Assembly: GCA_001799615.1 (NCBI GenBank)
Contig: MGTU01000009.1
Location: 576 to 64,575 of the forward strand
Reading direction: 5' to 3'
Source of the DNA: Elusimicrobia bacterium GWA2_61_42
GTDB lineage: Bacteria > Elusimicrobiota > Elusimicrobia > Elusimicrobiales > UBA9959
Length of the DNA: 64,000 nucleotides
The notes under the pieces are model-generated. The model saw nothing but the letters and a program-made list of their open reading frames with translations, was not told the DNA's origin and ran no database searches. Both the position numbers and the translations under genes were made by a program. This document shows positions 11,673 through 64,000 of the stretch, in pieces. The number at the start of each line of letters is the position of its first letter. The stretch's first letter is position 1.

Positions 11673-13250
11673 CTAGTTGCGAAAGAACGCAGACAGCTGC
11701 TCCCTGGTGCGGGGGGCCTGGCGGGCCAGCCGGCTGTCGGCGGCCACGCCCTGGCAGCGCAGGGCGTGCAGGCGCGTAAGCGCGGCCGCCCCGGCGAGTA
11801 AATTATAGGCGACGGTAACGGCGTCGCGGGCTTCCGGTTTTTCAAGGAAGGAGCCCCTGGCCCATTCGTTGAAGGCGCCCATGGCGGGGCCGCACCAGAT
11901 CTGGTAGTCGAGCTTGCGGCTCTCGTCCCCGGCCAGCGGCCAGCGGGAGGACTGGCTGAGGTACCAGCGGAACACCAGGGCCAGCTTATGCTTCGGCTCC
12001 CGTTCGGCGCGCTCGGCCTGCGCGGGGTCTTTGCGCAGGAAGTAGTCCCGCGTGCCCTGCCAGACCTCGCCGAAGGAGGCGCGGAAATAATCCCGCTCGA
12101 TGACGGCCCTGGTCTCGGCGGGGATCTCCTCGAAGCTCCCGCAGGTGCGGTAAAGATCGTAAAGCTTGTTGGCGCGCATGGCGAACATGGTGCCGCGCTT
12201 GAGGATCTGCACCCGCACGCCCATCTCGAACATGTCGGCCGCGGCGGCCATGGCCACGTCGGCCTGCTCCGCCCCGGCGAGGAGTTTCCGCACCAGGTCC
12301 GTGGTGCCCGATTCCACGCAGGCCTGGTTGACCGAGCCGGTCACCACGTAGGCCGCGCCCATCATGAAGGCGGCGGCGGCCGCTTCGGGGGTGGCTATGC
12401 CGCCGCCGGCGCCCACGCGCGGGGCAACGGCGTAATTAAATTTCTCCTGCAGCCGGTCGCGCAGGGCGAGGATGGTGGGCAGCAGGTTGACCAGCGGCCG
12501 GTTGTCCGTATGCCCGCCGGAGTCGGCTTCGGCCGTCACGTCCTCCGCCACGGGGATCCTGGAGGCCAGCTCGGCCTGTTCGGGCGTGAGCTCGCCGCGG
12601 GAGACCAGCTCCTTCAGGAATTTTTCCTCCGGGGGCGAGAAGAAGCGCGTCGCCACTTCCGTGCGCGAGATCTTGCCTATCACGCGGTTAGGGGTCTCTA
12701 TCCCGCCGTCGGCGTTGCGGCGTATGCCCGCGGTGCGGTAGCGGATGAGCGGCAGGGTGAGGCCGATGAAAGCCGAAGCCTCCACCAGGCGCACGCCGCG
12801 TTTTAAGTACAGGTCCACCAGGGCCGCTTCCAGCGCGGGGTCTGAGGGGCTGTGTATCAGGTTGAAACCGAAATTGGGCACCGCGGCTGACTGCAGGCGG
12901 TCTATGGCCTTTTCAACTTCAGCGATGGGCTGGCCGGCGGCGCCGTAGAAGCCCAGCATGCCGGCCCGGCCGAACGCCTCGGCCAGTTCAGTGGAGCTTA
13001 TGCCGTTGGCCATGGAGCCGCCGACGTAGGCGTAACCCAGCCCGTGGGCCCGCAGGAAAGCGGGATCGCCCAGGTTTTCCGGGGCGCAGGCGGGCATTAC
13101 GGGGGTGCCGGGCTTGAGCCCGGGGGTTAAGGCCAGGCTTTCGGAGCCGGCAGCGGAGAAAGGCGCCGTCAGGTCCTGTATGGCGGCCAGGGTCTCCGGC
13201 GAATAAGGCAGAAAAGGCTGCGTTTTGGTCCCTGTCGTTGAAGCGGTCAA
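11673..13250 (-). CDS. pfaD: PfaD-family enoyl reductase (FMN-dependent, 2-nitropropane dioxygenase-like) of the PUFA/polyketide synthase
   Basis: 525 aa. It contains GGSMANGISSTELAEAFGRAGMLGFYGAAG and ADSGGHTD, typical of PfaD/Pfa1. It sits directly upstream of pfaA on the same strand. Confidence 0.9.
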   Translation of the reverse strand: MTASTTGTKTQPFLPYSPETLAAIQDLTAPFSAAGSESLALTPGLKPGTPVMPACAPENLGDPAFLRAHGLGYAYVGGSMANGISSTELAEAFGRAGMLGFYGAAGQPIAEVEKAIDRLQSAAVPNFGFNLIHSPSDPALEAALVDLYLKRGVRLVEASAFIGLTLPLIRYRTAGIRRNADGGIETPNRVIGKISRTEVATRFFSPPEEKFLKELVSRGELTPEQAELASRIPVAEDVTAEADSGGHTDNRPLVNLLPTILALRDRLQEKFNYAVAPRVGAGGGIATPEAAAAAFMMGAAYVVTGSVNQACVESGTTDLVRKLLAGAEQADVAMAAAADMFEMGVRVQILKRGTMFAMRANKLYDLYRTCGSFEEIPAETRAVIERDYFRASFGEVWQGTRDYFLRKDPAQAERAEREPKHKLALVFRWYLSQSSRWPLAGDESRKLDYQIWCGPAMGAFNEWARGSFLEKPEARDAVTVAYNLLAGAAALTRLHALRCQGVAADSRLARQAPRTREQLSAFFRN

Positions 13251-45335: not shown

Positions 45336-45395
45336 CCCTTTTATCTAAAGGGTATAATGTATTTCGCGGTGTAAAAGCGGTCTTGTTCTCTTAAC

Positions 45396-45467
45396 GCGCC
45401 CGTGGTGAAATGGATATCACAGGAGCCTCCGAAGCTTCTAGTGCAGGTTCGATTCCTGCCGGGCGCA
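45396..45467 (+). tRNA. tRNA-Arg (anticodon CCG)
   Basis: Hand-folded cloverleaf: acceptor GCGCCCG/CGGGCGC, D-stem GTGA/TCAC, anticodon stem GGAGC/GCTTC with loop CT-CCG-AA, T-arm GCAGG-TTCGATT-CCTGC, discriminator A. No encoded CCA. Confidence 0.85.
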
Positions 45468-45705
45468 TATAATTTCGGGCAATGCGCCCGGAGCACGCCA
45501 TAATCATGGCGTGCGTCAGGAATCGAAAGCCGGAGCCGCGAGGCCACCAGGCCGCAGCGGCGAGGCGGGGTCGCAAGCTGAGGGCCGCGACGGCGGCCCG
45601 AAGACTTGTGACCGTCTGCCGGACTAAGCGCAGTGTTCCTTATCCGGCGGATGAAGCGCAGCGACCTAATCCGCCGGCTATGTTTCCCCGCTCATCTCTC
45701 TCTAA

Positions 45706-49930: not shown

Positions 49931-50003
49931 TGCTGGAACACCTGTTGGCGGCGCCCGGAATAAACGCGCGCGGAAGTTTTTTTAAGCTATTTTGGCCTGG
50001 GCC

Positions 50004-50032
50004 TTGACAAGTCAAGAGGCGTCTGTTATACT
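50004..50032 (+). promoter_or_regulatory. Near-consensus sigma70 promoter of structured RNA copy A
   Basis: TTGACA, then 17 nt, then TATACT, with an A/T-rich UP-like tract upstream. The -35 sits inside the palindrome CTTGAC-AA-GTCAAG. Confidence 0.75.
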
Positions 50033-50038
50033 TCAAAT

Positions 50039-50436
50039 GTAGCCTTGGTCTTTATACAGCGCGTCGGCAGTGTGAGCGGTTCGGTTGGGTTGGTTTCGGG
50101 GATCTGCCCCGGCCCCGGCGCGGTTTCCCCCGGTTCGCGGCCATGTTCCCGGCTCGGCGTTCTTGCGGCGTCGGCGCAGTTTCGGTGTTTGCGGCTCGCG
50201 TTCTACGGGGTGTTCCCCGGTCCGTCTCCCGCCCTTAGGGCGGCGCGGTTGCCGGGGTCCCGGTTCGGCGGTCCGCCCACAGCGGCGGCAACAGCTCCCG
50301 GGCGGGTGTTCCGGTCCCGGCGCTTTTCGGCGCTCTCGGTACTCCGGTTCGCTCCTCAGGCGGTGCGGTCTGCGGTCTATGCGGTCCGGCCTGTGTGCCA
50401 ATGAAGAGCCCCCGTTTCCCGGGGGCTCTCATTTTT
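50039..50436 (+). ncRNA. Unclassified ~400-nt A-depleted G/C/U-rich structured RNA, copy A (own promoter and terminator)
   Basis: The predicted TSS is about 7 nt after TATACT. Blocks conserved with copies B and C include gcgcggtttcccccggttcgcggcc and ggtccgtctccc...gcgcggttgccggggtcc.ggttcggcg. It ends in the terminator agagcccccg-tttcc-cgggggctct + ATTTTT (50405..50436). Confidence 0.7.
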
Positions 50437-50455: not shown

Positions 50456-50833
50456 TTACTTTCTTTTGCGCTCAGGAGCCAGGGCGGCGCGTATTGTAAG
50501 GTAGGTGCGCTTCTGTATGCCTGACGATTTATTGCGGATTATCCCTATGATCCTGGTTTCCCAGGTGGTGGTTCGTACTTTCGGCGCCTTCTCTTCCAGC
50601 AGGTCCGCGGCTTTCACCATCAGGGCCGCTGACACCTTGGCCAGCGTGGCCAGGCTTATCTTTTTAGTGCCCCGCTCTATCTGGCCTATATAGCTGGGGT
50701 GCAGCCCGGCCCGGTCCCCCAATTCCTCCTGGGACCAGTTCAGGCGCTTGCGGTGACCCCGTACGGAGGTCCCAAGCGCCGCGTAGATGTTTATTTTCAT
50801 GATGGCGCTTATATTTTTGCAATGAACCGGCAC
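50456..50833 (-). CDS. XRE-family helix-turn-helix transcriptional regulator
   Basis: HTH region: LNWSQEELGDRAGLHPSYIGQIERGTKKISLATLAKVSAAL. The start is uncertain (GTG 50833 or ATG 50800). Confidence 0.8.
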   Translation of the reverse strand: MPVHCKNISAIMKINIYAALGTSVRGHRKRLNWSQEELGDRAGLHPSYIGQIERGTKKISLATLAKVSAALMVKAADLLEEKAPKVRTTTWETRIIGIIRNKSSGIQKRTYLTIRAALAPERKRK

Positions 50834-52137: not shown

Positions 52138-55100
52138 ATGGGAAAGCCCGCGGCAACCGCAGCGCAGGTGTTGGAGGGGGATAAAACCCTTAAATTCCCG
52201 CACGCCATCCTGATCAGCGCCTCCGCCGGCTCCGGCAAAACCTATACCCTTACCCAGCGCTATGTGCAGTTCCTGCTTTCGGAGAAAGTTCCCAATAACG
52301 ACCTTTCCGGCATCCTCGCCGTCACTTTCACCAATAACGCCGCCAAGGAAATGAAAGCCCGCATCCTGGCGTGGCTGAAGGACCTGGCGCTGAATAAGAA
52401 CTGCGAAAAAATGGACGAGACCCTGGCGCTGGTCTCCCTTTCCCGGGAAGAGGTCCATAAGCGCGCCGGGGACCTGGTGGAGCGCGTCATCGGCAACTAC
52501 TCGGATTTTCACATCCAGACCATAGACAGCTTCCTGGCCAGGGTGATGGCGGCCTCGGTGGACGAGCTGAAACTGCCGCTGAAGGCGGAGATCACCATGG
52601 CCTACGACGTACTCATAGACCTGGCGCTGTACGCCATGTTCGCCCGCATAGGCAAGGCGGACCTGCCCGCCGAGGTCGTGGATAAATTCCTGGCCGTGCT
52701 GCCCAAGACCGGCTCCTACCCGTGGAACCCCGCCCAGCGCGTAAAGGACAATTTCAACAGCTTCCTGACGCAGGAGGGCAAGACCGCGGGCGTGCTGGCG
52801 GCGGTGGCCGGGGACCACGAGGCTTTGCTCAAGGCCAAATTCGGCGAGACGCTGAAGTTCTGCGCCGGCCTGGTAAAACATTACGGCGACAAAGGGCTGT
52901 TCAAAGAGAAGTGCCTGGCCGCGCTGGAAGCGAAGAACCTCACCGACTTCCTGGCGGCCTATAAGTTCGACTACGGCATTTTCAGCGGCGTTAAAAAGAA
53001 AAGCCTGCCGGCCGGCTGGGAAAAAGACCTCGCAAGCCTGAACGAACTGGTGATAGCCCTGACCGAGCTGAACGCCGCGGCTTATTACCACCCTTACGTG
53101 GGCATCTATGACCGCTTCAAGGCCGAGCTGGAGCGCGTCAAGCGCGGCAAGACCGACGTCATTCACATCAACGACATCGCCAAGAAGCTTTCCGCCTATA
53201 TCAACGCCGAGAACGTGCCCGAGGTCTACCTGAAGCTGGGCGAACGCATCTCCCACTTCCTCATCGACGAGTTCCAGGACACCAACCGCCTGCAGTGGGA
53301 CGTCCTCCGCCCGCTGGTGGAGGAAGCCGTCTCCAAGAACGGCTCGCTGTTCGTGGTGGGGGACATCAAGCAGGCCATCTACATGTTCCGCAACGCGGAC
53401 TACAAGATCATGCGCGACCTGCTGGACAAGGCCGAGGGCAAAAAGGCCGAGGCGGCCAACCTTTCGCTGGACTCCCTGGGCGGCGAATTGAAGTACGTGA
53501 ACCTGCCCGTCAACTACCGCTCCGACGGCGAGGTGCTGAACTACGTGAACGCCCTCTTTAAAGAAAAGCTCAAGCGCGTGCCCGAGCTGATAGGCCAGGA
53601 CCTGACCGAGCTTACCGCTTATTCCCAGGCCGCGCGGCCCGACAGGCTGAAGCTCGGCTATGTGAAGACCGGCGTGCTGGAGCTTGAGGACCTCTCCGAG
53701 GCCGAGCCGCAGAAAGACTGGCTGCTGAAAGCCGTGAATTCCGCGCGCGAGCGCTACCCGCTGGGCGAGATCGCCATCCTGGTAGCCAAGAACAAGCGTA
53801 TTGAGCCGGTGGTGGAGTGGCTGACCGGCGCCGGCATCCCCGTGGCCTCGCTGAGCTCCCTGGACATACGCAAGCGCAAGGTAGTGGCCGAGCTTATCGC
53901 CTGCCTGAAGTTCCTGGAAACCCCGTCGGATGACCTTTCCTTCTCCGCCTTCATAACGGGGGATATCTTCACCAGGCTTACCGGCCTGCCGCGCGAAGAA
54001 CTGACGGAGTTCGTCTTTAATTCCCGCTTAACGGCCCCGGGCGCCCTTCTTTACGCCGCGTTCCGCAACCACGCCAGGTACAAAGAATACTGGGACAAAT
54101 ACCTCGACGAAGCCTTCCGCAAGGTCGGCTACCTGCCGCTGTACGAGCTGGTCTCGGTGGTCTGCGACGATTTCAGGCTGTTCGCCAATTTCCCTTCAGA
54201 GCAGGCCTTCCTGGCCCGGTTCCTGGACGCGGTCAGCGCGCTGGAAGCCGGCGGCGTGACCAGCCCCCGCTCTTTCATAGAGTACGCCTCCGGGGCCGAC
54301 GAGGACAAGGCCGCGCTGTTCTCCATCGCCCTGCCGGAATACCTGGACGCCGTGCGCGTGATGACCTTTCATAAATCCAAGGGCCTGGGCTTCTCGGTGG
54401 TGATCAACCTGATGTACGACGAGCGCGGCCAGAGCGACCCGATGTATTTCGAGGAGAAGGACGGCGAGATCCACGTCTACCACATCACCAAGGCGGCGGC
54501 CGAGCAGTCGGTGAAGCTCCGGCCGGTGTACGAGGGCCGCAGGACGGACGCCAACGTGCAGGACCTGAACGTGCTCTACGTGATCTCCACCCGCGCCCGC
54601 CACGAACTTTATAACCTGGTGATAAAAAAAGCCCGCAAGACCGCGGCGCCGGAGCCCAGGCTGCAGGACCTCTTCGCGCCGTTCGAGGCCGGCACCCCCG
54701 CGGAGCGCAAGCCGGAGGCCCGCCAGGCCTCCGAACCGGTGGAGGTGCCCGGCGCGGCCGCCCGTCCCGAGCAGCGCTTCGACGCGCTGAAGCCCACTTA
54801 CGGCAGCTCCTTCGACACCGCCGAGGGCGAGCTGGCGCACGCTATCCTGGCCCGCGTCACCGGGCCGTCCGACCCGGAGCGGGAACTGCCCGCCCTTTTC
54901 GACGAGCTGAGCCCCGGCTATCCTTTCAAGTTCGACAAGGTCCGGCTGGTAAAGACGCTCCTGGCTTTCCTCAGCAACTCCGAGGCCGCGAATTTCTTCG
55001 CCGACGGCCCCGGCCGGCAGGTCCTGGCCGAGGCCGAATTTATAGACAGGAACGGCGCGCTGTTCCGCATGGACCGCGTGATAATAGAAAAAGACGCCGT

Positions 55101-55263
55101 GACCGTGGTGGACTTCAAGACCGGGCGCGAGAACATGAAAAAATACGCGCCCCAGATGAAGAATTACCTGGCGATAATTTCCGAAGTGTACGGCAGGCCC
55201 GCCAAGGGCGCGCTGGCCTACGTGGACCTGCAAAAGATAGTAGAGGTTAAACCGGGAGACTGA
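52138..55263 (+). CDS. UvrD/Rep-type superfamily-1 helicase fused to a C-terminal PD-(D/E)XK (RecB-family) nuclease, AddA-like
   Basis: Walker A SASAGSGKTYTL. Also LIDEFQDTN, VGDIKQAIYMFRNAD and TFHKSKGLGF. The nuclease motif is RMDRVII...VVDFKTG...QMKNY. Confidence 0.8.
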   Translation: MGKPAATAAQVLEGDKTLKFPHAILISASAGSGKTYTLTQRYVQFLLSEKVPNNDLSGILAVTFTNNAAKEMKARILAWLKDLALNKNCEKMDETLALVSLSREEVHKRAGDLVERVIGNYSDFHIQTIDSFLARVMAASVDELKLPLKAEITMAYDVLIDLALYAMFARIGKADLPAEVVDKFLAVLPKTGSYPWNPAQRVKDNFNSFLTQEGKTAGVLAAVAGDHEALLKAKFGETLKFCAGLVKHYGDKGLFKEKCLAALEAKNLTDFLAAYKFDYGIFSGVKKKSLPAGWEKDLASLNELVIALTELNAAAYYHPYVGIYDRFKAELERVKRGKTDVIHINDIAKKLSAYINAENVPEVYLKLGERISHFLIDEFQDTNRLQWDVLRPLVEEAVSKNGSLFVVGDIKQAIYMFRNADYKIMRDLLDKAEGKKAEAANLSLDSLGGELKYVNLPVNYRSDGEVLNYVNALFKEKLKRVPELIGQDLTELTAYSQAARPDRLKLGYVKTGVLELEDLSEAEPQKDWLLKAVNSARERYPLGEIAILVAKNKRIEPVVEWLTGAGIPVASLSSLDIRKRKVVAELIACLKFLETPSDDLSFSAFITGDIFTRLTGLPREELTEFVFNSRLTAPGALLYAAFRNHARYKEYWDKYLDEAFRKVGYLPLYELVSVVCDDFRLFANFPSEQAFLARFLDAVSALEAGGVTSPRSFIEYASGADEDKAALFSIALPEYLDAVRVMTFHKSKGLGFSVVINLMYDERGQSDPMYFEEKDGEIHVYHITKAAAEQSVKLRPVYEGRRTDANVQDLNVLYVISTRARHELYNLVIKKARKTAAPEPRLQDLFAPFEAGTPAERKPEARQASEPVEVPGAAARPEQRFDALKPTYGSSFDTAEGELAHAILARVTGPSDPERELPALFDELSPGYPFKFDKVRLVKTLLAFLSNSEAANFFADGPGRQVLAEAEFIDRNGALFRMDRVIIEKDAVTVVDFKTGRENMKKYAPQMKNYLAIISEVYGRPAKGALAYVDLQKIVEVKPGD

Positions 55264-55265
55264 GA

Positions 55266-56642
55266 ATGAAAAAAGACCTTAAAGAATACGCGGCCCTGCT
55301 GGGCGGCTACAGCGAGCTGCGCCTGCAGGAGAACCGGAACGCCAATATCTCCCTGATGAACGGGAACCTGGTCGCTAACGGCCAAACGGCCGCCGGCGGC
55401 CTGTCGGCCAGGGTTTACAGGAACGGGGCCTGGGGCTTCGCCTCCGCCCCCGGGGCCGACGTCGAAACAGTTAAAAAAGTGCTGGCCGCCGCCGCCCGCA
55501 ACGCCGAGTTCCTGGATTCACGCCTTAAAAAAGGCCTGCCGCCGCTGCCTTCCCTGCCCGGCAGCGCCGTGCACGACCTCTCGACCAGGAAAAACCGCAA
55601 AAGCCAGAAGGAACTGGTGGACTTCGCCACCGAGATCGACGGCTACATAGCCGGGAAATATAAAGCCCTTAAAGGCCGGCGCGTAAGCATACAGGGCCTG
55701 GACATGGAGAAGGCCTATGTTAATTCCTACGGCTCTTCTTCTTACTCTATGACGCCGCGCTCCACTTTAAGGGTGGTCATGTTCACCGAAAAGGACGGCG
55801 TCCCGGTGCAGGCTTCGGACTATGTCTGCAGCGTGGGCCATTTCGAGGACGTTTTCAGCGAGCCGGCCGCGCTGTTCTCCTTCGTGGACGGGATCTACGA
55901 GAAGCTCAGGCGCAGCGCCGAAGGCGTTTACCCCGAAGCCGGCCTGAAGGAATGCATCCTGGACGCCGACCTGGCCGGCATACTGGCGCACGAGGCCGTG
56001 GGCCACACTACCGAGGCGGACCTGGTGCTGGGCGGTTCCGTTTCCGCCGGCCTGATGGGCAAGGTGGTCGCCAGCCCCATGGTGAACCTGACGGACTTCG
56101 CGCATACCTGCCTGGGCAGGCCCTGCCATATCCCGGTCTACGTGGACGACGAAGGCGTAACGGCCAAAGACGCCGTGATCATAAAGGACGGCGTGCTGAC
56201 TTCCTACATGCACAACCGCGAGTCGGCCGCGCATTTCGGCGCGGCGCCTACCGGCAACGCCCGGGCCTCGGAATTCTCGGACGAGCCCCTTATCCGCATG
56301 CGCAATACGGCTATACTGCCGGGCAAGGACAAGCTGGCGGACATGGTAAGTTCCGTCAAGGACGGTTATTACCTGGCCGGCTGGACCAACGGCCAGGCCG
56401 ACTCCACCAGCGAATTTACTTTCGGGGTGATGGGCGGCTACGAAATAAAGAACGGCAAGTTCGCCAGGTCCCTGCGGGGAGCCACGGTTTCCGGCGTGGC
56501 CTTCGAACTGCTCAAGACCGTCACCATGCTTTCTTCCGACATGAGCTGGTCCGCCATCGGCATGTGCGGCAAGAAGCAGAGCATCCCGGCCGCCATGGGC
56601 GGCCCGGCCGTAAAATGCCTTATCAACATAGGGGGGCGCTGA
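55266..56642 (+). CDS. tldD: TldD-family metalloprotease
   Basis: Has the HEAVGH zinc motif. It is 458 aa and adjacent to its PmbA partner. Confidence 0.85.
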   Translation: MKKDLKEYAALLGGYSELRLQENRNANISLMNGNLVANGQTAAGGLSARVYRNGAWGFASAPGADVETVKKVLAAAARNAEFLDSRLKKGLPPLPSLPGSAVHDLSTRKNRKSQKELVDFATEIDGYIAGKYKALKGRRVSIQGLDMEKAYVNSYGSSSYSMTPRSTLRVVMFTEKDGVPVQASDYVCSVGHFEDVFSEPAALFSFVDGIYEKLRRSAEGVYPEAGLKECILDADLAGILAHEAVGHTTEADLVLGGSVSAGLMGKVVASPMVNLTDFAHTCLGRPCHIPVYVDDEGVTAKDAVIIKDGVLTSYMHNRESAAHFGAAPTGNARASEFSDEPLIRMRNTAILPGKDKLADMVSSVKDGYYLAGWTNGQADSTSEFTFGVMGGYEIKNGKFARSLRGATVSGVAFELLKTVTMLSSDMSWSAIGMCGKKQSIPAAMGGPAVKCLINIGGR

Positions 56643-56643
56643 C

Positions 56644-57939
56644 ATGTCCGACAAGAACACCGCTTTATTCTGCCTGGAAAGCCTTAAGCAGGCCGGCGCC
56701 GACAAGGCGCAGTGCGTGCTCACCAACACCGAGAAGCACGAGTTCAACGTGGACTGCGACAAACTCTCGCTGCTGCGCACGGGGTACGACACTTCCATAA
56801 AGTTCACGGCCATCAAGGACGGCCGCAGGGGCACCGCCTCGCTTAACGGCTGCGCCAGGCCGGAGATCGAGAAAGCGGCGGCTTCGGCGGTGGAATTCTC
56901 CAAAGCCTCGCCTTCGGACCCGGCTTACGATATCGCCCCCGCGCAGCCCGCCAAAGTTTTTGAGAGCGGCCTGGCCGCGCCGGACCTGGGCGCCATGTAC
57001 GACAGGCTCTCCGCTCTGCTGGCGCAGGCCCGCGCGAAGTACCCCCGCCTTAAACTGGTGCAGGCTATCGTGAACTTCAACCGCAAGACCGAGTATTTCC
57101 TGAACTCCAACGGCGTGGACTTCACTTCTTCCACCGGGTATTACGACGGCTCCGTTTTTTTCCTGTCGCAGGACGGCAAAAAAACCTCCTCGTTCAATTA
57201 TTCCGGGTTCACTTCCCGCGAGATGGAAAAAGAACTGATCGGGCGGGTTTCCATCGACACGCTGTTCCGCCAGTCGGCCGAGCAGCTGGACACGAAACCC
57301 CTGAACGGCAAGTTCGAGGGGGAGATCATAGTCACCCCCGACTGCCTGATAAACTTCCTGCAGTTCATAACGGCCATGGCGCTGCGCGACGCTTCGCTGA
57401 TCTCCGGCAGCAGCGTCTACAAGGACAAGCTGGGCAGGCAGATAGCTTCCCCGGGCTTCACCCTGCATTCCCGGCCCGTCTCCTACGAGATCGTGGACGG
57501 CTACTTCGTAACCCCGGACGGCTTTGAGGCCGAGAACACGACCATAATAGAGAACGGCGTGCTGAAGACCTTCCTGCTGAGCCTTTACGGCGCCAACAAG
57601 ACCGGCCTGCCGCGGGTTTCCTGCTCCGCCGGCTGCGACGTGATAGAGCCGGGCGATAAAACGCTGGAAGAGCTGGCGGCCCCCATAAAGAAAGGCCTGC
57701 TGGTCACGCGCGTGTCCGGCAACAACCCCAACGAAAGCGGCGATTTCTCCGGCGTGGCCAAGAACAGCTACTATATCGAGAACGGCAAGATCCTCTATCC
57801 CGTCAGCGAGACCATGATCTCCTGCAATATTCCCAAGATGTTCATGGATATCAGGGGTATCTCCAAAGAACGGGTGGATTTCGGCAGCGCCGTCTACCCG
57901 TGGCTCTCCTTCGGGGGAGTGACGGTCTCCGGCAAATAG
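56644..57939 (+). CDS. pmbA: PmbA/TldE-family protease subunit
   Basis: 431-aa TldD/PmbA fold lacking the HExxH motif. It starts 1 nt after the tldD stop. Confidence 0.8.
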   Translation: MSDKNTALFCLESLKQAGADKAQCVLTNTEKHEFNVDCDKLSLLRTGYDTSIKFTAIKDGRRGTASLNGCARPEIEKAAASAVEFSKASPSDPAYDIAPAQPAKVFESGLAAPDLGAMYDRLSALLAQARAKYPRLKLVQAIVNFNRKTEYFLNSNGVDFTSSTGYYDGSVFFLSQDGKKTSSFNYSGFTSREMEKELIGRVSIDTLFRQSAEQLDTKPLNGKFEGEIIVTPDCLINFLQFITAMALRDASLISGSSVYKDKLGRQIASPGFTLHSRPVSYEIVDGYFVTPDGFEAENTTIIENGVLKTFLLSLYGANKTGLPRVSCSAGCDVIEPGDKTLEELAAPIKKGLLVTRVSGNNPNESGDFSGVAKNSYYIENGKILYPVSETMISCNIPKMFMDIRGISKERVDFGSAVYPWLSFGGVTVSGK

Positions 57940-57949
57940 GAACGCGGGA

Positions 57950-59008
57950 ATGGACATGAACGTAGTTAAATTCGATTTCCTGGCGGCTTCGGACGCGGAC
58001 TGGGAGGCCTATTTCCGGCACAAGGACGAGATCCTGCGCGAGGCCGACCCGGAAGAACCCCTGCTGCCCCGCGAAAAAAGAAAGGCGGTCTTCATTTCTT
58101 CCGCGGCCAGCCCGTACCGCCAGGCCCGCATGTTCCTTATGTTCTCCCCCGGGGACGCCGCCGCCGCGGGGTTCGCTTTCCTTTCCGTGGAAACCCCCCG
58201 AAGTCCCACGTATGAGACCAATAAGCATTTCGCCCACCTTACGCTCTCCGTCTCGAAAAAATACAGGGGCAAGGGCGCTGGCCGCCTATTGCTGAAGCGC
58301 GTGATAGAAGAGGCCGCCGCGCTGGAGCCGGCCATCAGCGAACTGCTCACCCCCGTGGTGCTGGAATCCGGCGGGCGGTTCCTGGCGGGCCTGGGCGCCA
58401 CCGTAGCGCTTGAGAACGCGGAGAACCGGCTGAATTTCAAGGACGTCGACTGGAAGATGGCGCAGGCCTGGGCCGAAGAGGGCGCCCGCAGGAACCCGGC
58501 CACCGCGCTTGTAACCGTGCAAACCATCCCCCGGGAGGACCTGGAGGATTACAGCGCGGCCTATACGGAAACCAGCGCCCAGGCCCCCCAGGGCGACATA
58601 GAGGGGAAGTTCGTCTATACCCCGGAGATGATCCGTTTCTCGGAACAGAAAATAATAGCCCAGGGCTATACGCCGATAACGATGTTCACCAGGGAAAGCG
58701 ACGGAAAAATAAGCGGCTTGACCGAGATGATGTACCTGCCGGAAGCGGGGCACAAGGCGACGCAGATGCTTACCGGCGTGCGCGAGCAGTACAGAGGCCG
58801 GGGGCTGGGGAAACTCCTGAAGGCCAGCATGCTGCTGCATATAAGGAAAGAATTTCCCGGAGTAAAACATGTGGCGACAGGCAACGCCGACTCCAACGCG
58901 CCCATGCTGGCCATAAACAACAGGCTGGGTTTTAAAAAACACCTGGCGATAAAACTTTACAAACTGAAGCTCGGCCCGAAGCTGCCGGAAAAGGCGGGGC
59001 CGCCGTGA
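57950..59008 (+). CDS. Tandem GNAT-family N-acetyltransferase
   Basis: There are two acetyl-CoA-binding motifs: KKYRGKGAGRLLL and EQYRGRGLGKLLK. Confidence 0.7.
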   Translation: MDMNVVKFDFLAASDADWEAYFRHKDEILREADPEEPLLPREKRKAVFISSAASPYRQARMFLMFSPGDAAAAGFAFLSVETPRSPTYETNKHFAHLTLSVSKKYRGKGAGRLLLKRVIEEAAALEPAISELLTPVVLESGGRFLAGLGATVALENAENRLNFKDVDWKMAQAWAEEGARRNPATALVTVQTIPREDLEDYSAAYTETSAQAPQGDIEGKFVYTPEMIRFSEQKIIAQGYTPITMFTRESDGKISGLTEMMYLPEAGHKATQMLTGVREQYRGRGLGKLLKASMLLHIRKEFPGVKHVATGNADSNAPMLAINNRLGFKKHLAIKLYKLKLGPKLPEKAGPP

Positions 59009-59691
59009 GATCCAGGTTCTCTATCTGGGCTATCGTCGCCGCCAACCTGCTGCCGCTGGTCCTGGTCGCGCTCGGCTACTGGGGCGTAACCGAGATCCTG
59101 GCGCTTTACTGGATCGAGACCGCCATCGTCGGATTTTTTACCGTCCTGAAGGTCTTTTTCGCCTCGGCGCCGGTGCCGTATCACAAAACCGTCACTTTTG
59201 AAATGCTCAAGTCGGCTCCGCATCTGAAAACGCTGCCGCTGCTGGCCGGGGACCTGGGTTTTATCGGGAAGATCCTGATCTCCCTCTTTTTCGCTTTTCC
59301 TTTCATTATGTTCATGGCGCTGAACGGACTTATTCTTTACCTGGCGCTGGTCCTTGTTTATCCCGGCGCCAGCGTGCCGCCGCTCTTAAGCCTGAAATGG
59401 GGGCTGCTGTCGCTGTTCCTGGGTCACGGCGCCGCTTTCGCGGCGGATTATCTCGCCAGCGGTGAATTTCGCAGGACCAGGCCCGGCGACTGCGTGAACG
59501 AGCCTTTTCACAGGCTGGCTATAATGCAGCTTACCCTGGCCGCCGGGGCCGGCCTCTCCGGCTCGTTCGGCGGCATGCTGTATATAATGAGCGTTTTCGT
59601 CGTGGCCAAGCTCGCCATCGAACTGCGCCCGCCGGGCGGCTACATCGGCGCCGCGGCAGAAACGCCAAAAACCGACGCGTCAGCACGTTGA
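59005..59691 (+). CDS. Polytopic membrane protein, unknown function
   Basis: 228 aa with about 6 hydrophobic helices. It overlaps the GNAT stop by 4 nt. Confidence 0.55.
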   Translation: MRSRFSIWAIVAANLLPLVLVALGYWGVTEILALYWIETAIVGFFTVLKVFFASAPVPYHKTVTFEMLKSAPHLKTLPLLAGDLGFIGKILISLFFAFPFIMFMALNGLILYLALVLVYPGASVPPLLSLKWGLLSLFLGHGAAFAADYLASGEFRRTRPGDCVNEPFHRLAIMQLTLAAGAGLSGSFGGMLYIMSVFVVAKLAIELRPPGGYIGAAAETPKTDASAR

Positions 59692-59717
59692 CGCTTTCTC
59701 CTGCTATACTATATAAG

Positions 59718-61592
59718 ATGACTCCCGAGGAAATCCTTAAAAAACGCTGGGGCTACGGCGCCTTCAAACCTCTGCAGAAAGAGGCTATAGAGGCCGCGCT
59801 GGCCGGGAGGGACTGTTTGGTGGTGCTGCCTACGGGCGGCGGCAAAAGCCTTTGCTACCAGCTGCCGGCGGCCATGGGAAAGGGCCTGGTGCTGGTGGTG
59901 TCCCCGTTGATAGCCCTGATGGACGACCAGGTGGCCGCCGCGCGCGAAGCCGGCCTGGCCGCCGACGCGCTGCATTCCAATTTGAAGGCCGGCCCCAAGC
60001 GCGAGGCTTACCAGAACCTCTCCAGCGGCGTTACTGAACTGCTTTATGTCAGCCCGGAGCGCCTGCTCTCCGGCGACCTTTACCAGCTGATAGCTCCCCG
60101 GCTTATACTGGCCGCGGTAGACGAGGCGCACTGCGTGTCCCATTGGGGCCACGAGTTCCGCCCGGAGTACCGCCGCCTGACGGAGGCGCTGGACCTTTTT
60201 CCCAGGGCGGCCCGCATGGCGCTTACGGCCACGGCTACGCCCGTGGTGCAGGAGGATATCCGCGCGCAGCTGGCGCTGCGCTCGCCCGAGATCCTGATCG
60301 GCCACCCTGACCGCCCCAACCTTGTTTACCGCGCTTTCCCGCGCCGGGACCAGTCCAGGCAGGTGCTGGAGGTGGTGAAGCGCCACCCCGGCGAGGGCGG
60401 CATAGTTTACGCCCAGACCCGCAAGGACGTCACGCGCCTGGCCGCGAACCTTAAGAAGGAAGGGGTTTCCTGCGCGCCTTACCACGCGGGGCTCAACGCC
60501 GAGGAGCGCCGCCAGGCGCAGGACGATTTCGTGAACGAGCGGCTGGACGTGATAGTGGCCACCATCGCCTTCGGCATGGGCATAGACCGCTCCAACGTGC
60601 GCTACGTGGTGCACGCCAACACGCCGCGCTCGGTGGAGCATTACCAGCAGGAGAGCGGCCGCGCCGGGCGCGACGGCGAGCCCGCCGACTGCACGCTGCT
60701 GTTCTCGGCGGCGGACCTGGCCATGCACCGCTGGATGGCCAAGAAAGACGTCACGCTTTCCGCTGAGCGCGAGCGCGCGCTGGAGAAGCAGCTGCGCGAC
60801 ATCGGGCGCTTCGCGGTGGCGCCGGTGTGCCGGCACGGGCAACTGGCCGAGCATTTCAGCGCGCCTTACCCGGTGGCGCCGCGCGGGGAAGGGGGCTGCG
60901 GGGCCTGCGACGTCTGCCTGGGGGAGACCAAGGGGCTGTCGGACGCGGAGGCGCTGCTGACGGCTAAAAAAGTTTTGAGCGCGGCGTGGCGGGCCGAGGG
61001 GCGCTACGGCACGGGCTACGTGGTGAATCTGCTGCTGGGGCGGCCTAACGACCGCATGACGGGCAACGGCCACGACAAGCTTCAGGTGTTCGGCCTGCTG
61101 AAAGAGGCGGGCGAGCCGGCGGTGAGGTCTTGGATAGACCAGCTTATCGTGCAGGATTTCCTGGAGGTGACGGAGGAGAGCGAATACCCGCTGCTGCGGA
61201 TCACGGCGGCGGGCCGCGCGCTGTGCCAGGACAAAGGCGCGGTGCGGCTGGGGCTGCCGGTGCCGCCCAAGGCGGGCAAGAAGAAGTCCAAGGCGCTGAA
61301 GAAGGCGGGCGCTGATTTCTCCGCTTCGGACGAAGCGCTCTTCGAGCGGCTGCGCGCTATCCGGCGGGCGCTGGCGGACAAGGCGGGCATCCCGCCGTAC
61401 GTTATCTGCCAGGACGCGACGCTGCTGGAAATTTCTTCGGTGAAGCCGCGGACCCCGGAGGCGCTGCTGGAGATCAAGGGGATGGGGGAGAAGCGGGTGC
61501 AGAAATACGGCAGGATCTTCCTGGACGCCGTCGCCGGGCGCGCGCCGGAAATCCCTGCGCCGTCCGCGGTATCGGATGAGGCGGAGTTCTGA
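59718..61592 (+). CDS. recQ: ATP-dependent DNA helicase RecQ (helicase + RQC + HRDC)
   Basis: From ATG 59718: MTPEEILKKRWGYGAFKPLQ. Also has LPTGGGKSLCYQLPA, VDEAHCVSHWGHEFRPEY, and the HRDC region LFERLRAIRRALADKAGIPPYVI...IKGMGEKRVQKYG. The ORF-track start at 59688 is a TTG overlapping the upstream gene. Confidence 0.9.
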   Translation: MTPEEILKKRWGYGAFKPLQKEAIEAALAGRDCLVVLPTGGGKSLCYQLPAAMGKGLVLVVSPLIALMDDQVAAAREAGLAADALHSNLKAGPKREAYQNLSSGVTELLYVSPERLLSGDLYQLIAPRLILAAVDEAHCVSHWGHEFRPEYRRLTEALDLFPRAARMALTATATPVVQEDIRAQLALRSPEILIGHPDRPNLVYRAFPRRDQSRQVLEVVKRHPGEGGIVYAQTRKDVTRLAANLKKEGVSCAPYHAGLNAEERRQAQDDFVNERLDVIVATIAFGMGIDRSNVRYVVHANTPRSVEHYQQESGRAGRDGEPADCTLLFSAADLAMHRWMAKKDVTLSAERERALEKQLRDIGRFAVAPVCRHGQLAEHFSAPYPVAPRGEGGCGACDVCLGETKGLSDAEALLTAKKVLSAAWRAEGRYGTGYVVNLLLGRPNDRMTGNGHDKLQVFGLLKEAGEPAVRSWIDQLIVQDFLEVTEESEYPLLRITAAGRALCQDKGAVRLGLPVPPKAGKKKSKALKKAGADFSASDEALFERLRAIRRALADKAGIPPYVICQDATLLEISSVKPRTPEALLEIKGMGEKRVQKYGRIFLDAVAGRAPEIPAPSAVSDEAEF

Positions 61593-61617
61593 GCTTATTC
61601 AGCCACCGAGGTTATAA

Positions 61618-62661
61618 ATGACGAACGACAAGAAAGATCCGGGTACTACGCTGCTGGTGCTGCTGGCCGTTTTCCTTTTCCTGTTCCTGGGCATGATCTG
61701 GCCTTACCTGATAGCGCTGGTGATGGGCCTGCTGCTGGCCATCCTCAGCCGGCCGCTTTATAACGCGCTGGTAAAGAGACGCCTGGGGCCGCAGCTGGCG
61801 GCGGGCTTGTCCATGGCGGTGATCCTGCTGGCTATCATAGGGCCGCTGGCGGTTTTTGCGGTCACGGCGGTCAAGCAGGCCGTGGCCCTGGCGGCTTACC
61901 TGGCCGACGAGCGCGGCGCGGAATTCGTGAGGGCGGCGGTGGCCGCGGTTACGGCGCTGAAGCCGGTGCAATGGGTTATAGACAGCCCGGCTGACCTGCA
62001 GGCCAAGGGGCTGGAGTTCGCCCAGAGCGCGGGCGGCGCGCTGAGCCGCATGATCCTGGTGCAGGCTGCCGCCCTGCCGGACCTGCTGCTTAAGGTGGTT
62101 ATTTCCCTGCTTACCTGGTTCTTCCTGCTTTTCGAGGGGGAAACTTTTCTTAACTGGTTTATGCGCAGGGTGCCTATGGAGGCCGGCCTGCGCGGCCGCC
62201 TGATCTCTTCTTTCAGGGCTACGGCCGCTTCCACGGTGTGGGCGACTTCGGCGGCCGCGGCGGCGCAGGCGCTGGTGGTGATGGCGGGTTTCTGGGCGCT
62301 GGGGGTGCCGGCTATTTTCCTGGCCGGCGGGGCTACGTTCATCTTCGCCTGGATACCCATCCTGGGCAGCCTGCCGGTCTGCCTGGCGGGGGCGGTTTAT
62401 CTGTATTTCAACGGCGCGCTTTTTATGCTGGCGCTGATGGGCCTGGTGGCGGTGGTGGCGGGGCTTATGGATAACGTGGTGCGGCCTATCGTGATGAAGG
62501 GGCACGGGGATATGCACCCGCTGCTGGCGCTCATTTCAATTTTCGCCGGGATACGGATGTTCGGGGTGCTGGGCGTGATCTTCGGGCCGATCGTGGCCGC
62601 CATGCTGCTGGCTTTGCTGAACTCCTGGCAGCTGCCGGCGGCCGGAGCCGGGAATAATTGA
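61618..62661 (+). CDS. AI-2E family transporter (PerM/YhhT-like permease)
   Basis: 347 aa, polytopic, with the C-terminal motif ...VRPIVMKGHGDMHPLLALISIFAGIRMFGVLGVIFGP. Confidence 0.8.
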   Translation: MTNDKKDPGTTLLVLLAVFLFLFLGMIWPYLIALVMGLLLAILSRPLYNALVKRRLGPQLAAGLSMAVILLAIIGPLAVFAVTAVKQAVALAAYLADERGAEFVRAAVAAVTALKPVQWVIDSPADLQAKGLEFAQSAGGALSRMILVQAAALPDLLLKVVISLLTWFFLLFEGETFLNWFMRRVPMEAGLRGRLISSFRATAASTVWATSAAAAAQALVVMAGFWALGVPAIFLAGGATFIFAWIPILGSLPVCLAGAVYLYFNGALFMLALMGLVAVVAGLMDNVVRPIVMKGHGDMHPLLALISIFAGIRMFGVLGVIFGPIVAAMLLALLNSWQLPAAGAGNN

Positions 62662-62734
62662 TCCCGGCGGGCCGCGCCGCCCGACGTGGAAAGGCGCCGG
62701 GGATATTAATTTTAAATTTATTTTTATTTACCCC

Positions 62735-62763
62735 TTGACAAGTCAAGGGGTTGCTGTTATACT
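62735..62763 (+). promoter_or_regulatory. Near-consensus sigma70 promoter of structured RNA copy B
   Basis: TTGACA, then 17 nt, then TATACT. It is preceded by the A/T-rich tract attaattttaaatttatttttattta. Confidence 0.75.
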
Positions 62764-62769
62764 CGGTAT

Positions 62770-63200
62770 GTAGTCCTGATCTTTTAAATGCGTCGGCGGT
62801 GTAGTCGAGGTGCTCTCGGTGGTGTGCGGTCGAGCTGATCTCGGCGTTGAGGTTTTCCGGTCCGCGGGTCCTGCCCGCCCCGACGCGGTTTTTCCCGGTT
62901 CGCGGCCTGTGTTCTCCGGTCTGGCGCTTTAGCGGCGCCGCTTGGTCCGCTGTTCGAGGCTTGCGTTCTCCGGGTTTTCCCTGGTCCGTCTCCCGCCCTT
63001 TCGGGCGGCGCGGTTGCCGGGGTCCTGGTTCGGCGCTCCGTCTTCTGGCGGTCTGCCTCCGGGTGGGTGTTCCGGCCCTCGGTCTCCGGCGCTAATGCGC
63101 CTCCTGGTTCCCGGTTCGCTCCTTACGTGGTCCGTAGTTCCCAAGTACCCTGGCCTGTGCGCCAATTGAAGAGCCCCCGTTCCCGGGGGCTCTCAATTTT
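62770..63200 (+). ncRNA. Unclassified ~430-nt A-depleted structured RNA, copy B
   Basis: The 5' end (atgtagtcctgatcttttaaatgcgtcggcgg) is identical to copy C. It shares internal conserved blocks and the 3' motif cctggcctgtgcgccaattgaagagcccccg with the other copies. The terminator is agagcccccg-ttcc-cgggggctct + AATTTT. Confidence 0.7.
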
Positions 63201-63258
63201 ATATAGTGCGCGTTTAGCTTTGGGTGGTGGGCCGCGAGAAGCCCAGTCGGAGCCTGCC

Positions 63259-63372
63259 GAGGGTATGGGCCCGGCGGGCACCGGGTCGGCCACACCGTGG
63301 CCGCCCTCCTCACTCGGCCTCGTCGCTATGCAAGCCTCGGCCTCCGTGAGGGCCCGCCGAACCCATACCCTC
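63259..63372. other. About 114-nt imperfect palindrome predicted to fold as a multi-stem junction, in the spacer between RNA copies B and C
   Basis: The outer 12-bp stem is cgagggtatggg/cccataccctcg. After a 2x2 internal loop comes the 8-bp stem cggcgggc/gcccgccg. Inner hairpins are cggccac-acc-gtggccg and cctcac...gtgagg. Confidence 0.4.
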
Positions 63373-63562
63373 GTCAGTCCCCTCCGTGATGGTGGCGTAA
63401 TAACAGTTTTGCCGGGTGATTGCCGGAGATCTTCGGGAGGGTGAAAGGGAGGAATTTTGAAAATAAAAAAATGCGGGGGAAGGGCTGCCGGAAAAAAATA
63501 GGCGGCGAACGGGATTTAGCTCGACGTGAAAATAAGAAAATAAAATATTTTAAGATTACCCC

Positions 63563-63591
63563 TTGACAAGTCAAGGAGTTGCTGTTATACT
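63563..63591 (+). promoter_or_regulatory. Near-consensus sigma70 promoter of structured RNA copy C
   Basis: TTGACA, then 17 nt, then TATACT. It is preceded by aaaataagaaaataaaatattttaagatta. Confidence 0.75.
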
Positions 63592-63597
63592 CGGTAT

Positions 63598-64000
63598 GTA
63601 GTCCTGATCTTTTAAATGCGTCGGCGGTCTCGGTGTGCGGTCGAGCTGATCTCGGTGGTTGCGGGTTTCGGGCTTTGCCCCGGCCCCCGGCGCGGTTTCC
63701 CCCGGTTCGCGGCCAGTGTTTTTTGGCTTGGCGTCTTGCGGCGTCGGCGTTCGAGGTTGGTTGCTGGCGCGCGTTCTACGGGGTGTTCCCTGGTCCGTCT
63801 CCCCCACCTAAGTGGGGCGCGGTTGCCGGGGTCCTGGTTCGGCGGCCCGCCTTTCGCGGCGGCAACCTGCTCCCGGGTGGGTGTTCCGGTTCTCGGTTCG
63901 GCGCTAACGCGCTGCCTGGTTCCCCGGTCTGCCCCTTACGCGGTCTCAGTCGCGGTTTACAAGTACCCTGGCCTGTGCGCCAATTGAAGAGCCCCCGTCC
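63598..64000 (+). ncRNA. Unclassified A-depleted structured RNA, copy C (3' terminator cut by the window edge)
   Basis: It is collinear with copies A and B. The window ends inside the terminator 5' arm (gaagagcccccg). Confidence 0.65.

Follow-up and report, generated by a model that had tools for sequence, protein, structure and literature searches.

A 64,000-nucleotide (nt) stretch of contig MGTU01000009.1 of Elusimicrobia bacterium GWA2_61_42 (forward strand, positions 576 to 64,575; this whole stretch is referred to below as the window) contains three similar segments for which a preliminary description, made from the letters alone, had proposed a novel multi-copy RNA gene. Are these segments RNA genes at all and, if so, what might their product do? 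The analysis confirmed three paralogous genes of about 400-430 nt, each with its own predicted promoter and terminator: copy A (50004-50436, from promoter through terminator), copy B (62735-63200) and copy C (63563-64000, where the window ends), all on the + strand. Every feature that had been ascribed to their common architecture was found in its place. It is very probable that they represent a family of structured non-coding RNA genes, each presumably transcribed as an independent unit, and the family is a new one within a known kind, that of the orphan large structured bacterial RNAs or stable RNA genes. A high dosage of the RNA, which the preliminary description read from the three separate promoters, may be inferred.

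Copies A, B and C can be aligned over their whole length with a mean column identity of 79% (pairwise identities: A/B 72%, A/C 73%, B/C 78%). Judging from the spacing to the -10 box, transcription would probably start at 50038-50040 in copy A, 62769-62771 in copy B and 63597-63599 in copy C. The predicted copy A transcript (50038-50436, about 399 nt) takes its 3' end from the T-run of the terminator and matches the family profile with an nhmmer E-value of 2.4e-83. Copy B has its promoter at 62735-62763 and its terminator at 63170-63200, and the promoter of copy C lies at 63563-63591. The window end cuts copy C just inside the terminator, which is expected at about 63997-64021; a longer contig (L001) carries the full copy at 11946-12410, with the terminator visible at about 12380-12404. 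The very G/C/U-rich body noted earlier is reflected in an adenine content of only 6.3-6.9% in the window copies, compared with 18% over the whole window, and adenine stays at 5-12% across every homologue.

The composite promoter pattern TTGACAAGTCAAG-N6-CTGTTATACT has exactly three matches in the window (50004, 62735 and 63563, all on the + strand), with 0 expected and none in shuffled sequences. The reported TTGACA-17 nt-TATACT promoter does stand at each locus; a sigma-70 scan of 49-64 kb found only these three sites as an 11-of-12 match with a TG extension. In copy A the extended -10 element (TG-T-TATACT) lies at 50024-50032, 17 bp from the -35 box, and TATANT is kept in the promoters of all homologues. 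The A/T-rich UP-like tract claimed for all three loci is clear at copies B and C but weaker at copy A (49977-49996, read directly from the sequence); AAATATTTT-type tracts appear at about -40 to -60 in most homologues in the upstream alignment. The -35 hexamer TTGACA is contained in a 14-bp palindrome, CTTGAC-AA-GTCAAG (CTTGACAAGTCAAG; 50003-50016 in copy A), whose first 13 bp (CCTTGACAAGTCAA) are unchanged in 20 of 20 promoters next to a variable spacer. Across 133 loci, a search that tolerated up to one mismatch located it once per RNA gene and at no other place. Since this invariance exceeds what the -35 hexamer alone explains, the palindrome is likely to be an operator recognized by a dimeric regulator.

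At the other end, copies A and B possess a 10-bp GC-rich stem followed by a T-run, 400-430 nt after the promoter (stems AGAGCCCCCG / CGGGGGCTCT, at 50405-50436 and 63170-63200). The terminators had been called identical, which is true of the stems, whereas the loops differ and the terminator of copy C falls past the window end. In copy A the intrinsic terminator as a whole, with its conserved AAUGAAG lead-in, the stem (helix 16 of the model discussed below) and the U-run, spans 50400-50436. Promoter and intrinsic terminator are both kept, on the same strand, in all homologues.

Several further observations concern the ends of these genes. A CCGACGTGAAAA-like element lies at about -75 of B- and C-type copies (window 62687-62698 and 63522-63533; also in L106, L021, L126b/c and L138b). 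A-type copies, in which this position coincides with the end of the deacetylase gene, lack the element; it may serve as a second site of regulation, or it may just belong to the duplicated unit. Directly after the terminator, a 52-nt unit (GGGGGCTCTCTC...) is present in 1-3 tandem copies in three loci (L066 6021-6190, with 3.3 copies at 97% matches according to TRF; L009 about 7600-7700; L138 about 7930-7970). Each unit holds the 3' half of the terminator stem, which points to terminator slippage or recombination, or else to the use of more than one 3' end. A gene for an XRE-family helix-turn-helix protein (50456-50833, - strand) converges on the terminator of copy A; the same layout recurs in just one other locus (L131), and the XRE protein is a possible, unsupported candidate for the palindrome binder.

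Could the segments encode a protein instead? No reading frame is open in all homologues; which one is open varies among them. Long open reading frames (ORFs) are present in all six frames because the + strand is poor in adenine. Among the indels that separate close homologues, 117 of 143 are not multiples of 3, and neither the substitutions nor the variable columns follow a period-3 pattern. A search of 5.8 billion predicted proteins with the antisense ORF of copy A found no more than 2 relatives, both weak. The earlier statement that there is no plausible protein is thus upheld. The view that the RNA matches none of the recognized families was corroborated as well: of the 4227 families of Rfam 15, only tRNA-Arg passes the gathering score in the window, the best scores at the three loci at E<=10 are 11-20 bits against thresholds of 41-72 bits, and searches of 12 homologous loci revealed nothing besides a tRNA. 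Blastn searches of plasmid and phage collections gave no match, and a plasmid or phage origin was rejected on this ground. In the literature, no description of such an RNA in Elusimicrobia was found.

Relatives were recovered from related genomes and from metagenomes, where the preliminary description had expected them to be sought. At least 119 loci in the genome collection matched the 18-mer GCGCGGTTGCCGGGGTCC, swamped by chance matches in GC-rich genomes; a 26-mer filter and blastn, applied to the listed 18-mer matches, identified 6 Elusimicrobia-type loci or genomes with the RNA. A stricter pattern found 12 further contigs in metagenomes, and synteny-guided retrieval via orthologues of a polysaccharide deacetylase gene supplied more divergent members (L138, L140, L143 and L135). 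In total, the family comprises about 20 distinct homologues with 61-85% identity, from Elusimicrobia metagenome-assembled genomes and from groundwater and sediment metagenomes. In 1.23 Mb of sequence, including 115 unrelated GC-rich control loci (0 matches there), the family profile matches RNA loci only. A-type copies directly follow the polysaccharide deacetylase gene in at least 8 loci and B-type copies follow recQ; as the orthologous sites are kept, A and B are old paralogues, each separately maintained. A locus or sampled region contains 1-3 copies, with three in L126 and two in tandem in L138. The deacetylase is at least 73% identical at all RNA-bearing loci, and the RNA is not found at the deacetylase site in L134, L137 and L146 (deacetylase at most 68% identical), nor after recQ in L134 and L146. 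This distribution suggests a restriction to one clade with 56-65% GC; among the sequences searched, the RNA is confined to one group of uncultivated groundwater Elusimicrobia.

The genes around the copies are a side observation: a UvrD/PD-(D/E)XK helicase-nuclease, RecQ, an RNase H together with an RNase T-like exonuclease, and a TldD/PmbA pair are encoded in the neighborhood (window 52138-62661; L001 16393-17692). Relatives that lack the RNA hold the same set of DNA-repair and nuclease genes, so the association looks incidental.

The secondary structure was modeled with RNAalifold from an alignment of 19 sequences (A4), and the model was compared with controls in which the pairing partners were slid by 1-3 columns and with 500 column shuffles; these controls do not take phylogeny into account. 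It contains 97 pairs in 16 helices, arranged in six conserved helical domains, P1-P6. Standard pairs occupy 91.6% of cells in the model and 46-50% in the controls with slid 3' partners. Pairs with compensatory changes on both sides number 19 (7-11 in the slid controls), and the covariation score is 0.151 (0.044-0.068 in the slid controls). None of the 500 shuffles reached any of the observed measures. The alignment therefore exhibits covariation instead of codon-like conservation, as one would expect from the RNA gene proposed at the outset. These structure-based counts replaced a brute-force pairwise covariation scan, in which the dominance of 4 near-identical sequences in the alignment produced chance pairs by the hundreds.

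From 5' to 3', the RNA consists of a free leader, P1, P2, P3, P4, P5, an unpaired repeat tract, P6 and the terminator (coordinates below are those of copy A, + strand). P1 (50060-50122) is a long-range helix (50060-50066/50116-50122) that encloses hairpin P1b (50098-50109), and it occurs in four independent compensatory versions by lineage: GCGUCGG/CCGGCGC, GCGCCGU/ACGGCGC, GCACCGG/CCGGUGC and GAGCCUG/CAGGCUC. Extra GUCGAG..CUCGG hairpins are inserted within P1, two in copy B (in P1a), one in copy C and 0-2 across the homologues. P2 (50128-50210, helices 4-7) is a branched domain. The core hairpin P3 (CCGGUCCGUCUCCC..GGCGCGGUUGCCGG; 50215-50257, helices 8-9; 62979-63022 in copy B) is the most conserved element, with invariant blocks of sequence, 94-96% of cells paired, 3 compensatory pairs at the tip and invariant bases in its internal loops. 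It is followed by P4 (50259-50302), three stacked helices (10-12) with 89-100% of cells paired, by P5 (50304-50354, helices 13-14) with its variable apical hairpin, by an unpaired 3' tract with tandem GCGGU repeats (50358-50386), and by P6 (50387-50399, helix 15), a short hairpin before the terminator whose closing pair switches between U-A and C-G. A helix closing the 5' end onto the 3' end was considered and dropped: inspection by eye found no consistent pairing of the leader with the 3' tail, which contains adenines, and the RNAalifold pairs 3-7/427-429 were removed as unsupported.

One lineage (L135/L136, 6930-7197; 56% GC) carries a short form of about 265 nt. It keeps the promoter, the leader, P1, the core hairpin, P4, P6 and the terminator, and it lacks the whole P2 domain and the 3' array of GYGGU motifs; in one assembly a spurious 104-aa antisense ORF is annotated over it. 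This annotation, the long ORFs in six frames and the crowding of three copies within 14 kb are what could be said for there being no RNA gene here, only a repeated DNA element (mobile or REP-like) or a small protein gene of odd composition. Against this, the copies keep orthologous positions from genome to genome, and neither terminal repeats nor transposase genes were seen. The compensatory changes in paired positions, the lack of a conserved frame and the frame-breaking indels speak against both versions, and the near-absence of relatives of the antisense ORF against a protein gene, so that we consider this explanation largely refuted and its residual probability negligible.

The 5' leader of these genes, ~24 conserved nt left unpaired in the model, gives a hint at how the product may be made. 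Within it, UG.UCU.U, at about +9 to +19, is invariant across the 19 homologues. In copy A this segment corresponds to TGGTCTTTATA (50046-50056), in copies B and C to positions 62777-62787 and 63605-63615, and in the homologues it follows the pattern UGNUCUYU(N)AA, with variants UGCUCUUUGAU, UGUUCUUUUUAA and UGAUCUUUGAAG. It resembles boxA, whose consensus GYTCTTTAANA (PMC5725501) it fits at about 8 of the 10 specified positions, this consensus being that of gamma-proteobacteria. An 11-nt version of the pattern has 6 matches in the window against 1.15 expected, 3 of them outside the RNA genes. The role of boxA in rrn operons has been reviewed (PMC8632103), and Nus-factor regulation via boxA elements outside rRNA has been described in a study of the Nus regulon, whose authors explicitly placed non-coding RNAs outside their examination (PMC5725501). 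Promoter strength, the upstream tract and the boxA-like leader together are the grounds for proposing an rRNA-style, Nus-assisted and Rho-resistant synthesis of an abundant stable RNA, a proposal for which we see the balance as even. The 11-nt pattern also appears 2 nt upstream of the only tRNA gene of the window, tRNA-Arg(CCG) at 45396-45467, as part of a leader segment (GTCTTGTTCTCTTAA, 45381-45394) that lies about 25 nt after a TATAAT box and agrees letter for letter with the boxA-like 5' segment of the RNA copy in L021; we count this as weak support for boxA, possibly a coincidence.

The same leader admits other interpretations. Perhaps the RNA regulates by base pairing, with its unpaired, relatively A/U-rich 5' end (GUAGUCYUGWUCUYUU) acting as a seed for mRNAs, e.g. 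at AGGA-type ribosome-binding sites, while the structured body would give stability or bind a chaperone and the paralogues would behave like sibling small RNAs (sRNAs). The 5' ~24 nt are indeed the most conserved unpaired segment, and the invariant terminator hairpin with its U-tail is a typical feature of chaperone-dependent sRNAs, for which multi-copy siblings are a known pattern. However, with 400 nt and about 100 conserved pairs the RNA is far bigger than typical seed-type sRNAs, within the window the only sites complementary to the seed are the RNA genes themselves, and the seed overlaps the boxA-like motif; we regard a seed RNA as unlikely.

Or perhaps the RNA acts on the transcription machinery itself? 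The 6S and Ms1 RNAs are stable molecules of 200-400 nt that bind RNA polymerase, and the RNA described here might either resemble them or serve as an abundant boxA decoy that titrates NusB-NusE and thereby tunes rRNA synthesis. The strong rRNA-like promoter, the boxA-like 5' motif and the known Nus regulation by boxA outside rRNA (PMC5725501) would agree with such a role. Against the former version, there is no Rfam match to 6S at E<=10, and the multi-domain fold with its free 5' end does not form a rod with a central bubble closed by 5'-3' pairing; against the latter, a decoy would not need some 350 nt of conserved structure. A regulator of this type appears quite improbable. Still less credible is a descent from an rrn operon, by duplication of promoter, boxA and leader, to give an rrn-leader derivative or a lineage-specific stable RNA associated with the ribosome. 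The UP-like tract, consensus promoter and boxA-like motif match rrn leaders (PMC8632103), and the low copy number (1-3 per sampled region) would fit, yet no similarity to the models of small-subunit, large-subunit or 5S rRNA was detected, and paralogues that differ by whole hairpin modules would be unusual for a ribosomal component.

For the function of the mature RNA, one suggestive feature is a short reiterated motif, G(C/U)GGU, which is enriched about 4-fold; GCGGU alone occurs 7.6 times per RNA, compared with 1.8 in dinucleotide shuffles. Fixed GCGGU sites are found in P1 and P3, and the others form the tandem array in the unpaired 3' tract, with 4 units in copy A, 1-4 in all other long-form homologues and none in the short form L135. 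The motif is concentrated where the model predicts no pairing, and orthologues differ in how many copies of it they have. The number-variable unpaired GYGGU motifs, the invariant P3 loops, the gain and loss of hairpins as modules, the scarcity of adenine and the existence of paralogues lead us to suggest, tentatively, an RNA that binds protein as a sponge or scaffold and is controlled by a regulator of its own, formally similar to CsrB/RsmZ and built on another motif.

Taken together, these features may be reconciled in one explanation, to which we give slightly less than even weight: each locus would encode, as a gene complete in itself, a stable RNA that binds protein and acts in trans, produced from a transcription unit resembling those of rRNA. 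Transcription would start from the near-consensus sigma-70 promoter (UP-like tract, TTGACA, 17-bp spacer, TG-n-TATACT), subject to a dimeric regulator that may bind the palindrome overlapping the -35 box. The boxA-like leader would recruit NusB-NusE and other Nus factors, as on rRNA operons, allowing Rho-resistant synthesis of a long untranslated RNA and perhaps helping its co-transcriptional folding. The body folds into P1-P6 and ends at the sequence-invariant intrinsic terminator, which would give a stable, highly base-paired, non-coding RNA of about 390-450 nt (about 265 nt in the short form). The mature RNA may then act in trans as a protein sponge or scaffold, with the G(C/U)GGU repeats, whose number varies by copy, and the invariant internal loops of P3 as candidate protein contacts, and the paralogues could provide for dosage or differential regulation. 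A more far-reaching version, in which the RNA would be a new clade-wide stable RNA of the housekeeping type, made with the aid of boxA and Nus factors, controlled by the operator and assembled on the GYGGU repeats and the core hairpin into an abundant ribonucleoprotein with a global regulatory or a ribosome- or RNA polymerase-linked function, seems doubtful.

Several results weigh against the explanation of an rRNA-like unit that produces a protein-binding RNA. The match to boxA is imperfect, since its 3' half varies, and the motif is not present in the leaders of 4 orthologous tRNA-Arg genes (L132, L148, L149 and L151). GYGGU occurs just 3 times in the short form (L135/L136) and never in the 3' tail of that form, which argues against the repeats as an essential feature and weakens the idea of a repeat sponge. 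So low an adenine content is uncommon in compact tertiary folds; it speaks for an RNA that is extended or bound to protein and does not point to any particular ligand. No conserved partner gene was found, the neighbors not being conserved beyond synteny, and the two ORFs of 178 aa that lie downstream, one after copy C and the other after the L138 copies, have no relationship with one another. The z-scores of the minimum free energies are unremarkable for copy A (-0.23) and moderate for copy B (-2.94), although unexceptional folding energies are expected for GC-rich sequences and constitute evidence neither way.

Two other regions of the window might hold further RNAs. About 230 nt between the tRNA-Arg gene and an AAA-ATPase gene (window 45468-45700; L151 12961-13150) are conserved in two genomes, with CAGGAATCGAAAG... 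and GTGACCG.CTGCCGG as shared segments, and their first hairpin exhibits compensatory changes (CACGCCAT/ATGGCGTG versus CGGGACAT/ATGTCCCG). The stretch has no match in Rfam and is not present in L148; it may be another structured RNA or a leader. The second region (63205-63400), between copies B and C, forms a GC-rich long imperfect hairpin (-109.9 kcal/mol, z = -4.44 against shuffles) with no Rfam match beyond a chance miRNA-like one, and could be a repeat element or another RNA.

Structured bacterial RNAs of more than 300 nt without an assigned function are rare, and the study of OLE, GOLLD/ROOL and HEARO/omega RNAs later led to new biochemistry. To our knowledge, there is almost no experimental RNA biology of Elusimicrobia, and the family offers a testable entry into RNA-based regulation in this group, with an alignment and a structure good enough to seed an Rfam family. 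Its combination of features is unusual: several copies, a near-perfect promoter with an invariant palindrome, a boxA-like leader, adenine depletion and reiterated GYGGU. Should the boxA assignment be true, the reach of Nus-factor antitermination would include a stand-alone RNA with a regulatory or structural role.

How does this RNA compare with known systems? With CsrB, RsmY and RsmZ it shares the organization as a stand-alone gene of several hundred nt with its own promoter and intrinsic terminator, often present as at least two paralogues in a genome, a palindromic box for a regulator in the promoter region, and a short motif reiterated in loops or linkers in numbers that vary by homologue. 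However, the motif is G(C/U)GGU and not A(N)GGA, and there is no similarity in sequence or in Rfam; where Csr/Rsm RNAs have about 5-22 GGA/ANGGA motifs, mostly in hairpin loops, the Elusimicrobia RNA has 0-3 GGA and no ANGGA, which sets it apart from that class. Its long-range helices and conserved core hairpin are also features that sponge RNAs usually lack. The leaders of rrn operons, with their nut-like boxB-boxA-boxC arrangement, resemble it in the strong promoter, the A/T-rich upstream tract and the linear UGNUCUUU motif, which lies within about 10-20 nt of the start of a long, structured transcript that is not translated. The likeness is confined to the first ~20 nt, since the RNA ends after about 400 nt at its own terminator with no rRNA following, the motif deviates from GYTCTTTAANA in its 3' half, and boxB and boxC cannot be assigned with confidence. 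Like 6S and Ms1, it would be a stand-alone RNA in the range of 200-400 nt with a strong promoter and sometimes two copies, its abundance and stability being predictions; unlike 6S, it shows no rod with a central bubble, has 24 unpaired nt at the 5' end and a terminator as its 3' end, and does not match RF00013. Finally, with OLE, GOLLD, ROOL, HEARO and raiA it has in common a large size, many covarying helices, a narrow range and a role unassigned at discovery, whereas it exhibits no similarity to their models, is smaller than GOLLD, ROOL and OLE, and differs from all five in its 5-12% adenine, its multi-copy nature, its promoter with a putative operator and its boxA-like leader.

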